Shown here piece by piece: positions 52,955-55,135 of a stretch of DNA of 64,000 nt. A program made the position numbers and the translations under genes. The notes under the pieces are model-generated. The model saw only the letters and a list, made by a program, of their open reading frames with translations, did no database searches and was not told the DNA's origin. Position 1 is the first letter of the stretch, and the number at the start of each line of letters is the position of its first letter. The stretch is from NCBI GenBank assembly GCA_965224085.1, contig CBDCYI010000011.1:832001-896000 (forward strand), given 5' to 3'. Source of the stretch: Candidatus Marinacidobacterales bacterium. Its GTDB lineage: Bacteria > Acidobacteriota > Vicinamibacteria > Marinacidobacterales > SMYC01.

Positions 52955-52983
52955 TTGACAAAAAATGCGATCTGGGCCATCGT
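52955..52983 (+). promoter_or_regulatory. sigma70-type promoter
   Basis: TTGACA-17-CATCGT (the -10 is weak). Confidence 0.5.
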
Positions 52984-52989
52984 GAGGTC

Positions 52990-53278
52990 AGTTCTACTCC
53001 GCGCGCCTCATAGGTAGGCGTGTGGCGGCTCCGTGGCGGGTTGTGGGCGGCCCCGAGAGCTGGACGGGCGGGCCCCGTCAATCGTTGGAACGTCCGGAAA
53101 GGGGGTGGTCCAGTGAGTAGTACTACAGTTTCCGTGGAGGTGGCGTCCCCTTAGGTGGAGCAGCACTCTTCGTGCGTAGCGAGGGTGCGTCCCCCAAGTA
53201 GATCTTGGAGGGGAAGCCCACGCCACCAAAGCGAAGCTACCGAGCCCCGGTTTCGCGGATGCGAAGCCGGGGCTCTTG
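52990..53278 (+). ncRNA. candidate structured ncRNA or sORF transcript with extended 16S-complementary motif
   Basis: Lies between a promoter and a terminator, has several hairpins and no long ORF, and carries AAAGGGGGTGGTCCAG at 53098-53113. Confidence 0.6.
53242..53278 (+). terminator. strong GC hairpin, likely an intrinsic terminator
   Basis: GAGCCCCGGTTTCGC-ggat-GCGAAGCCGGGGCTC-TT (short U tract). Confidence 0.7.
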
Positions 53279-53305
53279 CTATTTGGGTGTAGTAGGATCG
53301 GGGGC

Positions 53306-53833
53306 ATGAATTTTCTCGAAGGTTTTTCCAAGATCACAAGAACCGACGCGTTCGTGAACTCGGGCGTCGGACTCGAGCAGGAGCTCGACCCGTCCAAAAT
53401 CGATTTCGCCGTTGTCGGCGACAGCTTCCAGGACTTCTTCCGTCAAGGCGTTCGGATCAGCCCCACGCTTCTTACGATGCCGAAAGGCTGCGTGCAGCAA
53501 GGGCCGCATTGCCATCCGGGCGGCGAGTTCAGCTACGTCGTCGAAGGCGAATATTTCGACGGCGACATGGAGGGCGGCGTGATCCACGCGTATCCGGCTG
53601 GCTCGATCGTTTTCTACAGCCAAGGCTCCACACACCGGCCCCTGTCCAAGGAAGGCGCGCGCATCCTCTACATCCCGTTCGACGGAATCATCTTCGGCAA
53701 GGACCCGGAAGACCTCGCGCGCAAGATGGTCAAAGTCGGTACTGGTGAGGAAGCCGTCGAGTACGCGCTCCAGTGGATGGTGCCGGATGCCGGCGAGCGA
53801 CAAGAGCTTGCTGACGTCGTTTTGCGTTCGTAA
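53306..53833 (+). CDS. cupin domain protein
   Basis: PHCHPGGEFSYVVEG and YPAGS....GSTH motifs. Confidence 0.8.
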   Translation: MNFLEGFSKITRTDAFVNSGVGLEQELDPSKIDFAVVGDSFQDFFRQGVRISPTLLTMPKGCVQQGPHCHPGGEFSYVVEGEYFDGDMEGGVIHAYPAGSIVFYSQGSTHRPLSKEGARILYIPFDGIIFGKDPEDLARKMVKVGTGEEAVEYALQWMVPDAGERQELADVVLRS

Positions 53834-53843
53834 AAACGGTCTT

Positions 53844-55100
53844 TCAGCTTCCGATACAGATCAGCTCGCCTTCCGTCCTGAAGTACCAGCGTCCGTCCAC
53901 AAGTGCGGGCGAGGCGAGGGTGCGTGCGCCAAAGCGGTTCACGTGGAGAAGCTCGAACTCCGGACCCGCTTTGAGAACGAAAGTCTCACCCTCGTCGTTC
54001 GTGAAGAAGACCTTCCCATCGACCGCGACGGGCGAGGCTGAGAAGCCTTCTTTCGGCGCGTTTCCCAGTCTGCCCTGAAACAGCACTTTGCCCGTCTCGG
54101 CTTCGAAGCTGGTGACGATCGACTGCATGTCGTTGATCGTATAGAGCTGCCCGTCGACGATGATGGCCGAAGGAACGAAAGGCGCCCCCTTCGGACTCTT
54201 CCAGACGACGTGTGTGCCGGTGACGTCGCCGCTTCCGCCCGGACGGATCGCGAGCGTCGGACCAGCCCTTCCCGAAGACGCGAAGACGAGATCGTGCCCG
54301 ACGACCGGAGTAGGGATGACTTCGAACTTGTTGCCCGTGACGGTCCATAGCGCGCTGCCGCTGTTTGGGTTATAGGCGGTCACATTGCCTTGGCTCGAGA
54401 CAATGAGCTCATCCCGCCCGTCTGCTTGAATCACGACCGGCGTTCCCCAGCCGGTTCGCGTTTCGCGCTCGGTGCGCCAAACCCGTTCACCGCTTTTTTT
54501 GTCGAAAGCCGCGACGAAGGACTGCCCCTGGTGATCCTGGTACAGGATGACTTTGTCTTTGTAGAAAATTGGAGAGCCGGCCGACCCGTGATAGTTGTCG
54601 AGGGTCCCAACTTTGCTTTGCCACACGATCTTGCCGTCGAAATCCATCGCGACGAGTCCGTGGGTGCCAAAAGAAGCGTAGATCAACTGTCCATCGGTAA
54701 TCGGCGTCGCCGAGGCATGGCCGTTTTTGCCGTGGCCTCTCTCGACGCCTTTTTGCGCCGCGGCGGTCTTCCATAGCAGCTTTCCGCCTGAGCGGTCGTA
54801 GCTCAGAATCGACAGGCGACGCCCGCCGTCTTCGGCCGTCGTCAGAAAGAGTCGATCGTCCCAGACGATCGGCGAGGAGTTGCCCGCACCGGGGACGGCG
54901 ACTTTCCACACCACGTTCTCGGAATCCGACCAGCGATCCGGATAACCGGAGCCCACCACGTAGCCTTGGCCCGACGGCCCGCGCCAGCTAGGCCAGTAAC
55001 GCGCGCCCTCGCCCTCGACCGTAATCATGCTTACTTTGTCTTTGCCGAAACCGGCAGTGGCGATGAGCAAAAGGGTTGCGACCAAAGTTCTCTTCGACAT
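53844..55100 (-). CDS. PQQ-like beta-propeller protein (BamB-like repeats)
   Basis: Signal peptide, WPSWRGP, GNSSP and repeated G..LW blades. Confidence 0.88.
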   Translation of the reverse strand: MSKRTLVATLLLIATAGFGKDKVSMITVEGEGARYWPSWRGPSGQGYVVGSGYPDRWSDSENVVWKVAVPGAGNSSPIVWDDRLFLTTAEDGGRRLSILSYDRSGGKLLWKTAAAQKGVERGHGKNGHASATPITDGQLIYASFGTHGLVAMDFDGKIVWQSKVGTLDNYHGSAGSPIFYKDKVILYQDHQGQSFVAAFDKKSGERVWRTERETRTGWGTPVVIQADGRDELIVSSQGNVTAYNPNSGSALWTVTGNKFEVIPTPVVGHDLVFASSGRAGPTLAIRPGGSGDVTGTHVVWKSPKGAPFVPSAIIVDGQLYTINDMQSIVTSFEAETGKVLFQGRLGNAPKEGFSASPVAVDGKVFFTNDEGETFVLKAGPEFELLHVNRFGARTLASPALVDGRWYFRTEGELICIGS

Positions 55101-55135
55101 CGTTGTACTCCTCACGATGAATATTAGGCTGCGGG

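Follow-up and report, generated by a model that had tools for sequence, protein, structure and literature searches.

A structured small RNA with an extended Shine-Dalgarno sequence and a short open reading frame in Acidobacteriota

A stand-alone structured small RNA is located on the forward strand of a 64,000-nucleotide (nt) stretch of DNA from a Candidatus Marinacidobacterales bacterium (Acidobacteriota; contig CBDCYI010000011.1, positions 832,001 to 896,000), referred to here as the window. The RNA occupies window positions ~52990-53285. It carries a Shine-Dalgarno (SD) sequence of maximal length (SD1), complementary to the 3' end of 16S rRNA, followed by a short open reading frame (sORF) of 13 codons whose last part is paired in a long-range helix, P3. 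The RNA is best explained as doubling as a mini-mRNA. The preferred reading, to which a probability of about 0.55 is given, is that the sORF is translated and that transit of the ribosome opens P3, so that the RNA would act as a ribosome-operated switch. The kept frame, the SD sequence and the pairing of P3 together lead us to take translation through P3, in a frame of fixed length, as the conserved property in place of the peptide sequence, with some lineage-specific constraint on the peptide. The parts noticed in a first-pass annotation of the window (a TTGACA hexamer, the anti-16S motif, the sORF, the long-range pairing, the hairpin P5 and a 15-bp closing stem) all lie where that annotation had placed them (Table 1).

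Reading frame, long-range helix and Shine-Dalgarno sequence

An open frame that begins with GTG (44 sequences) or TTG (4 sequences) was found in all 48 homologues, 7-8 nt after the GGAGG core of the SD sequence; in the window, where the core of SD1 is GGGGG, this distance is 7 nt. No in-frame stop interrupts the sORF frame in any of the 48, compared with 37 and 35 of the 48 in the other two frames. The sORF has 13 codons in 21 sequences, 14 in 26 and 15 in one, and its insertions and deletions are multiples of three only. The stop codon (TAG in 38, TAA in 9, TGA in 1) is always the third codon after GAG-GTG-GCR, and the SD-like GAGGTG in the P3a part of P3 is invariant. The same rules apply to the homologues L127 and L128, which were not used in model building, to four short-form loci of family f5, and to four acidobacterial loci resembling Ms_IGR-5, which like CC2171 is an Rfam small RNA (sRNA) family discussed below. 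The stop usage of the family differs from that of the long open reading frames (ORFs) of the genome, 47% of which end in TGA. No claim is based on this bias: the homologues are related to one another, in 38 of 48 the G of TAG is paired with C, and all three stops occur in the wider CC2171 set.

The 306-nt stretch folds at -151.5 kcal/mol (z = -4.0), and none of 100 shuffled sequences folds as well. An author-specified structure of 40 base pairs was scored for pairing and compensatory change on an alignment (A3) of 48 distinct sequences, in which related sequences are not independent observations. Standard pairs fill 93.3% of the cells, and 22 of the 40 pairs changed on both sides. None of 500 shuffles reached any of five pairing measures, and controls with the partners slid by 1-3 columns gave 37-44% paired cells and at most nine pairs changed on both sides. 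P3 joins the last six codons of the sORF to a strand about 70 nt downstream, just before the terminator. Its coding strand GAGGTGGC is invariant, and the partner strand varies in ways that preserve the pairs (CGCCACC, CGTCACC, CGTCGCT and TGCCACC). In family f39, the Ala codon GCG is changed synonymously to GCA together with a C to U change in the partner (six sequences, column pair 155/327). The second SD-like sequence, GGAGGTGG, had been proposed to be sequestered by pairing; it lies in P3, a helix backed by this covariation.

The 5' domain is a pseudoknot. The 5' strand of helix P1 lies in the loop of Pb, and P1 is therefore a pseudoknot helix, for which L127 adds two further compensatory changes; its 3' strand ends exactly at the start of SD1. 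The P4/P5 region is variable in length and sequence among the homologues, with insertions of up to ~100 nt. By eye, L080-L085 and other loci outside families f1 and f2 contain a CCTCC-like mimic of the anti-SD sequence 6-12 nt 3' of the stop codon, which apparently pairs with a downstream GGAGG to form the base of the first variable hairpin. Two further pairings were tried and rejected. A CTGGAC/GTCCAG pairing (53060-65 with 53108-13) that would hide the end of the SD sequence is broken in homologues with GCCGGAC, and a pairing of SD1 with the 3' strand of P3 finds the matching U in only 5 of ~24 sequences that carry A at the relevant SD position.

The encoded peptide is much less conserved than the frame. 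Only E-V-A is constant across the phylum, and its codons are invariant at the nucleotide level inside the helix; the N-terminal residues and the last two residues change freely. In families f1 and f2, variation in codons 2-5 is concentrated at positions 1 and 2 (mean pairwise difference 0.46 and 0.38, compared with 0.12 at position 3). An ordinary small protein gene, in which the function would lie in the peptide of 13-15 residues and the RNA would be structured only for stability and high expression, is unlikely on these grounds, even with an ORF maintained in 48 of 48 sequences. Conservation of the peptide is found within subgroups. The sequence x-S-D-K-H-G-L-x-E-V-A extends over families f21, f39, f61 and f68 with wobble changes (GAC/GAT, CAC/CAT, GGC/GGT and TTA/TTG), the f5 subgroup peptide MDSCHKPREVADA is likewise conserved with synonymous wobble, and the sORFs within one genus show four synonymous and no non-synonymous differences. 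The overall ratio of synonymous to non-synonymous variants is about neutral, however, and the RNA outside the ORF (the pseudoknot and the 3' strand of P3) is as conserved as the ORF. The 'conserved micropeptide locus' suggested in the first-pass annotation is borne out in one respect, since all 48 homologues maintain the frame with its start, stop and length, but the peptide itself is poorly conserved. The peptides (13-15 amino acids, hydrophilic) also differ from those expected of type I toxin mRNAs, which are hydrophobic and at least about 19 amino acids long; a toxin mRNA of that type would also have a cognate antisense RNA.

At 53116-53127 of the window and in the f1 and f2 homologues, codons 2-5 nearly always end in T or A and are rich in Ser and Thr, in a genome of 60% G+C. 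These codons could reflect the use of rare codons or the need for an unstructured A/U-rich stretch after the start.

The anti-16S motif AAAGGGGGTGGTCCAG is present at 53098-53113, as reported earlier with an extent of 16 nt. The organism's own 16S rRNA gene (locus L050) ends ...CTGGATCACCTCCTTTCT, and the complementarity is therefore longer than that figure: it spans 53096-53113 without interruption, 18 pairs in all, of which three are G-U. By E. coli numbering, which we assume to apply, the final four of these pairs would extend into the 3' strand of helix 45. When both strands of the 6.87-Mb genome were scanned, 18-nt runs were found only at SD1 and on the antisense strand of the rRNA genes (rDNA), the next best run being 15 nt; the complementarity is far beyond chance. 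The predicted energy of the SD1 duplex is -31 kcal/mol, compared with -9 for AGGAGG. With the organism's own 16S tail as a proxy, at least 13 contiguous pairs are kept in 47 of the 48 homologues and 17 in 33, which upholds the conservation of the motif. Variant cells of the motif are pair-preserving in 63 cases (mostly A>G or C>U) and pair-breaking in 25, of which 12 are at the outermost position and four are the GTG>TTG change of the start, and the seven G positions are never changed to A; the excess of pair-preserving changes is suggestive only, since the cells are not independent events. The pattern envisaged at first, a conserved motif with sORF codons free to change, was found in part: the motif is kept and the codons vary, but the reading frame is kept too.

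Such complementarity would also suit an RNA that is not translated. In a decoy or hibernation-type RNA, SD1 would capture the 16S tail of 30S or 70S ribosomes, P3 would block elongation, the ORF would be incidental, and the RNA would sequester or protect ribosomes or the anti-SD sequence. The uniqueness of the 18-nt run apart from the rDNA antisense strand, the predicted duplex energy, the one-sided, pair-preserving variation of the motif, the poor conservation of the peptide and the start of P3 just past the initiation footprint expected from the sequence are all compatible with this explanation, and the significant ribosome-protected reads that PMC4974804 describes for Ms_IGR-5 homologues in M. 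abscessus and M. smegmatis could stem from binding just as well as from translation. A decoy is nevertheless quite unlikely, because it needs none of the rules of frame, start and stop: a frame open in all 48 sequences with stops in 37 and 35 of the alternatives, length changes only in multiples of three, starts restricted to GTG and TTG (with ATG as well among the Ms_IGR-5-like forms, in some of them), and three different stop codons used at one position. A frame that is invariant while its codons vary argues against a purely non-translated 30S decoy. Translation through P3 is the reading followed below.

Table 1. Features of the small RNA and the adjoining gene (window coordinates)
Feature	Position	Strand	Description
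Independent transcription unit	~52990-53285	+	Promoter, ~290-nt structured RNA and intrinsic terminator
Promoter -35, TTGACA	52955-52960	+	Read in sequence; 17-nt spacer to -10
Promoter -10, CATCGT	52978-52983	+	Weak; predicted transcript start near 52990
P0, 5' hairpin	52999-53025	+	Minimum free energy (MFE) fold; differing sequences apparently form a hairpin here in homologue alignment A1
5' pseudoknot domain	53026-53096	+	Pa, Pb, P1 and P2
Pa	53026-31/53057-62	+	Both-sided changes in 4/6 pairs
Pb	53037-40/53052-55	+	Stem of at least 4 bp, from differing sequences, in 48/48 homologues; loop holds 5' strand of P1
P1	53044-49/53091-96	+	Crosses Pa and Pb; both-sided changes in 2/6 pairs
P2, hairpin	53063-67/53075-79	+	Both-sided changes in 4/5 pairs
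SD1, GGAAAGGGGGTGGTCCAG	53096-53113	+	Maximal SD sequence; complementary to last 18 nt of own 16S rRNA
sORF, GTG..TAG	53113-53154	+	13 codons; encoded peptide MSSTTVSVEVASP
P3	53133-46/53220-33	+	Both-sided changes in 5/12 pairs
P3, 5' strand (within sORF)	53133-53146	+	P3b 53133-53135, tandem G-A loop, P3a GGTGGCGT 53139-53146
Variable hairpins inside P3	53163-53214	+	P4 53163-69/53182-88; P5 53190-98/53204-14; MFE fold
P5, hairpin	53190-53214	+	TCCCCCAAG/CTTGGAGGGGA; read in sequence
P3, 3' strand	53220-53233	+	ACGCCACC 53220-27, AAA, then GCG 53231-33
Intrinsic terminator	53242-53285	+	15-bp stem 53242-53275 (11 G-C pairs), GGAT loop, then TTGCTATTT; called by terminator scan
Terminator stem	53242-52/53265-75	+	Both-sided changes in 7/11 pairs
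Cupin gene (Cupin_2)	53306-53833	+	ATG 53306 lies 31 nt past terminator stem

Transcription unit and genomic surroundings

The promoter at 52955-52983 was not called by a simple sigma-70 scan of the window, because its -10 hexamer is weak. It is supported instead by conservation: TTGAC occurs at the equivalent upstream place in 34 of the 48 homologues, and in most of these a spacer of 17 nt separates it from an nAnnnT hexamer. The TTGACA -35 element is lacking in the f21 homologues L088, L090, L094 and L098 and in the f39 homologues L099-L104. Other upstream motifs are common within each of these two families, such as GTGTATCTTCCC in f21, and their sequences hint at a promoter of a different type.

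The cupin gene that follows the RNA on the same strand might suggest a cis-acting 5' leader, either a riboswitch or a leader-peptide attenuator. The layout of sORF and terminator resembles that of attenuators, and the 5' pseudoknot is possibly an aptamer. This explanation is largely refuted by synteny and is most improbable. A cupin gene lies 3' of the RNA in four of four loci of genus g1 and in one weak case among the 22 loci tested, a stop-to-stop ORF listing suggests convergent downstream genes in genomes G012, G013, G016 and G025, and clustering of the flanking ORFs revealed no neighbour conserved across the phylum, only synteny at the level of lineages. The 3' strand of P3 and the 5' half of the terminator are both C-rich, so that no antiterminator pairing is evident by inspection, nor is a run of regulatory codons, and the f5 forms have no 5' domain. 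With the cupin gene as neighbour only in genus g1 and no conserved neighbour elsewhere, the first-pass description of a stand-alone structured RNA, distinct from a cupin leader, is supported. With regard to riboswitches in general, the pseudoknot is supported by covariation and abuts the SD sequence, neither a ligand nor a known class was matched in Rfam, and the domain is absent in f5.

The neighbouring genes in the window are unremarkable (TPR, cupin, BamB-like propeller and glyoxalase). The BamB/PQQ_2-type beta-propeller gene (53844-55115, reverse strand) accompanies the RNA at 10 of the 22 loci tested, with strong synteny at six, and this link is probably local synteny only. At the acidobacterial locus L083 an apparent tRNA gene, recognized from the sequence, lies just downstream on the opposite strand.

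Contigs from RNA libraries cover the locus. Three runs of one sponge-metatranscriptome study each contain a near-identical contig that extends from 53004 to 53161-53184, and contigs of one marine-sediment RNA run are 85-95% identical across the locus. Run X5 gave contigs that extend over the promoter and cupin gene as well and are possibly derived from DNA. In the three runs of the sponge study the contigs share their start at 53004, and parts of the window are uncovered in runs X1-X3; both are at most a weak hint. At 53103, an A>G position in the SD core, the G of the window is replaced by T in the near-identical contigs of runs X2 and X3 and by A, as in most homologues, in more distant contigs; the T may be due to strain variation or to an assembly error at low depth.

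Distribution and related RNA families

One convincing locus each was detected by blastn in 22 of 40 relatives (17/18 in f1, 5/8 in f2 and 0/14 in f3); the relative G027 gave a chance-level match only, and no second copy of the RNA was found in the organism's own genome. Public contigs that match the RNA are labelled Acidobacteriota, e.g., Vicinamibacteria and 'Ca. Marinacidobacterales'. Two covariance models were built over the segment from P1 to the stop codon, R1 from 23 sequences and R2 from 35 more diverse sequences, and their E-values are rough. With R1, the RNA was detected in 28 of the 151 genomes that represented the class and in 22 of a phylum-wide sample of 151. R2 matched 26 of the 151 phylum genomes, 24 convincingly on inspection, and 38 of the 151 class genomes, including ten weak matches among 39 f5 genomes. 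Five of these f5 matches were inspected and four are genuine (L131, L132, L134 and L135); L133, along with L129 and L130 from the phylum search, was judged a false match. Many families gave no match in the genomes searched (e.g., f3, 0/27, and f37, 0/10), which is not proof of absence.

The f5 short form lacks the whole 5' pseudoknot domain, and its promoter (TTGACA, 17 nt, TACACT) lies ~15 nt before the SD sequence. It retains the 18-nt SD sequence, the GTG start, a 13-codon ORF in which GAG-GTG-GCT is followed by two codons and then the stop, P3 with a compensatory GCUG/CAGC change, and the terminator. Judged from these sequences, the SD sequence, sORF, P3 and terminator appear to form the core module, with a 5' domain that is dispensable in f5.

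No match at gathering score was obtained with Rfam 15 over the 64-kb window, and an ARAGORN scan of the window for tRNA and transfer-messenger RNA (tmRNA) found no gene. The tmRNA, 6S, RNase P and signal recognition particle (SRP) RNA families do not match at the locus, and each is found above its cut-off elsewhere in the genome, which agrees with the first-pass annotation, where the RNA was not recognized as any of these or as a tRNA. At E-values up to 10, the window gave terminator-like Rfam matches plus weak matches to CC2171 (RF01867) and Ms_IGR-5 (RF02471). CC2171 is a family of Alphaproteobacteria, among them Caulobacter and Methylorubrum, and Ms_IGR-5 one of Actinobacteria, from Mycobacterium smegmatis and Streptomyces. 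The RNA is thus unrecognized at the gathering score, but below that threshold it is a relative of Ms_IGR-5 and has a 5' module in common with CC2171.

Ms_IGR-5 and the window RNA are alike in the order of their parts: an SD-rich segment (GGAGGUGGUCC, near the 5' end of Ms_IGR-5), a short ORF and a terminator. The Ms_IGR-5 ORF ends GAG-GUG-NNN-NNN-NNN-stop and is paired to a distal ..CAGC..ACC strand, and the window RNA has this same architecture. The Ms_IGR-5 member L160 has the exact 19-mer GAAAGGAGGTGATCCAGTG, a GTG start and a 15-codon ORF that ends EVIVT. Four acidobacterial genomes that both R1 and R2 had missed were matched by the RF02471 model, all with an SD sequence and an ORF ending E-V-x-x-x-stop. 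In some Ms_IGR-5-like forms the start is ATG, 11-13 nt from the SD sequence. The 5' end of Ms_IGR-5 lies ~10 nt before the SD sequence, whereas the window RNA has ~100 nt of P0 and pseudoknot in that place; most acidobacterial forms share this extra ~100-nt 5' pseudoknot domain, and the f5 forms have the short layout. From these sequence comparisons, the window RNA is considered, with moderate confidence, to be a divergent, 5'-extended acidobacterial branch of the Ms_IGR-5 group.

The link claimed to CC2171 is confined to the 5' module, whose consensus GAAAGGAGGUGAUCCAGUG is identical to that of the acidobacterial RNA on comparison of the sequences. The f5 short form matches RF01867 over this module; the window scores 15 bits (E = 0.7, cut-off 75). 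No RF01867 match was found in 151 acidobacterial genomes, in a search that detected the Caulobacter positive control. CC2171 likewise combines a terminator with a short ORF that is joined by a long-range helix to a strand upstream of the terminator. In CC2171, however, this helix involves codons 3-5 and not the 3' end of the ORF. The ORFs of the CC2171 set are mostly 18-25 codons long, and 30 of the 73 start with MSHC; the E-V-x-x-x-stop rule is obeyed by only 13 of the 73, and the stop codons are used evenly. SEP1 of S. meliloti, which has the highest translation efficiency among the novel sORFs there, was considered as a CC2171-type ORF and rejected, as it is acidic and no link was seen.

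The exact 19-mer was present in more than 120 metagenome contigs among the matches listed. Twenty of the 80 loci returned were tested against the Rfam models, and R2 was run over all 80. CC2171 was matched by 16 of the 20 at E up to 0.01, seven reaching 75 bits and nine scoring 33-73 bits, and L160 scored 53.5 bits against Ms_IGR-5, above the cut-off. R2 gave six loci at 46-56 bits and the Ms_IGR-5 members L160 and L211 at 22; one of the six, L144, was recognized by both models (R2, 52.5 bits; RF02471, 32.9 bits). The metagenome loci L148, L165 and L201, of a clade with the peptide MS(Y/F)TKRCHLAGIAR, each combine a CC2171-like RNA (44-45 bits) with an opposite-strand tRNA gene ~150-170 nt away.

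Both Rfam families have been reported as expressed RNAs. IGR-5 is described as a 'validated but yet uncharacterized' sRNA of M. smegmatis capped with nicotinamide adenine dinucleotide (NAD) (bioRxiv 10.1101/2021.12.14.472595), and expression of Ms_IGR-5 in S. lividans is recorded in PMC8079986. CC2171 was confirmed by Northern blot in M. extorquens, in a report that gives no condition or function for it (bioRxiv 10.1101/2022.01.24.477521). In the main texts of the freely available papers searched, no account was found of the RNA from Acidobacteriota, nor of the way in which SD sequence and sORF are combined in Ms_IGR-5 and CC2171. The sRNA kind itself is already known as Ms_IGR-5, and the new part is the 5'-extended acidobacterial form.

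Three other systems resemble the window RNA in part. The rnTrpL/peTrpL system of Sinorhizobium is described as a small terminated RNA with a ~14-codon ORF whose translation sets the conformation of the RNA, with both RNA and peptide able to act in trans (PMC6614838, PMC7298713). It differs in its place upstream of trpE(G), its Trp regulatory codons, its terminator/antiterminator and its leaderless start, none of which applies here. In the Downstream-peptide/glutamine-II riboswitch family (yfr6), a pseudoknotted 5' domain directly precedes a conserved short ORF, as in the window, and coding was inferred, according to PMC2864571, from synonymous changes and 3-nt indels. This family gave no Rfam match at E up to 10, and in contrast the window RNA is conserved 3' of the ORF as well and belongs to a group that can lack the 5' domain, as in f5. 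Non-AUG starts in S. aureus are reported to be accompanied by extended start-proximal SD/anti-SD helices (PMC13009471); the acidobacterial starts are similarly GTG or TTG in all 48 sequences, always with an extended SD sequence, but the S. aureus cases are ordinary mRNAs with a few extra pairs and not 13-18 nt over the whole 16S tail.

Proposed ribosome transit and its meaning

In the proposed mechanism, the compact 5' pseudoknot would end directly at an SD sequence with which the free 3' tail of 16S rRNA pairs over its full length, and the GTG 7 nt downstream would open the 13-codon ORF, with its first codons in an unstructured A/U-rich stretch. A 30S subunit docked on SD1 would have the GTG in the P site and a footprint that ends before P3, and initiation would require no unwinding. 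Elongation would then have to unwind P3. The GAGGTG lies 6 nt before the last sense codon, and once the stop codon has reached the A site, the ribosome could re-pair its anti-SD sequence with this GAGGTG and dwell at termination. While a ribosome occupies the sORF, the conserved C-rich 3' strand of P3 would be unpaired. The output may be ribosome occupancy (capture, buffering or protection), a translation-dependent conformational signal, or the peptide; as variants, the RNA may read out or buffer the capacity of free ribosomes, or gate a trans-acting region. The analysis shows the anatomy of the transcription unit, its conservation, the covarying structure, the kept frame and the complementarity of the SD sequence; we infer translation in this organism, the opening of P3 by translation, and the open or closed state or the occupancy as the output.

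Several points weigh against this reading. Single-nucleotide variants of the codons are 19 synonymous to 62 non-synonymous, which is about neutral and means that the peptide is weakly constrained, and part of the frame conservation may have a purely structural cause. A very long SD sequence and a stable helix past the initiation footprint could trap ribosomes and not allow elongation. RNA support in this organism consists of library contigs, which are silent on ends and levels and in which DNA is possibly present. No convincing trans target was found when the 3' strand of P3 with its linker was compared with the organism's own genome by BLAST-short (best match 14 nt, E = 0.54, the level of chance), and no antiterminator alternative was evident by inspection. 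The kinship with Ms_IGR-5 also lies below threshold. Against RF02471 (cut-off 45) the window scores 9.6 bits (E = 10) over the terminator only, and the f5 locus L131 scores 29 bits (E = 9e-5) from end to end; the four other acidobacterial genomes matched by this model score 32.7-43.8 bits, and none of 151 exceeds the cut-off.

A broader proposal is that the sRNAs with maximal SD sequences and sORFs (the acidobacterial RNA, Ms_IGR-5 and CC2171) form one ancient class across phyla that reads or buffers free anti-SD tails and 30S subunits; this is regarded as doubtful. The alignments and models may be used to annotate the gene in Acidobacteriota, where no Rfam family reaches the gathering score. 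In our view, the logic shared across phyla is a more interesting point than the new acidobacterial form. It combines an SD sequence that covers the 16S rRNA tail in full with an optimally spaced start codon other than AUG and with a short ORF that is closed into a long-range helix and conserved in its frame, not in its peptide.

Under the broader proposal of a class across phyla, a ribosome would be caught through pairing with the full 16S tail, driven through an ORF of fixed length while it unzips P3, and parked on GAGGUG at termination. Ribosome availability would thereby be turned into a conformational or occupancy signal of an RNA, e.g., for the storage or protection of ribosomes in slow-growing cells or for gating of the trans strand. 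Two Rfam sRNA families that were validated by Northern blot or sequencing have been functionally blank for more than a decade, and the Acidobacteriota add a third, 5'-extended branch. Because the logic is common to these phyla, the orphan sRNAs become testable, and ribosome-operated switching or capture is a concrete proposal for a widespread RNA class that has tractable hosts in M. smegmatis and Caulobacter.

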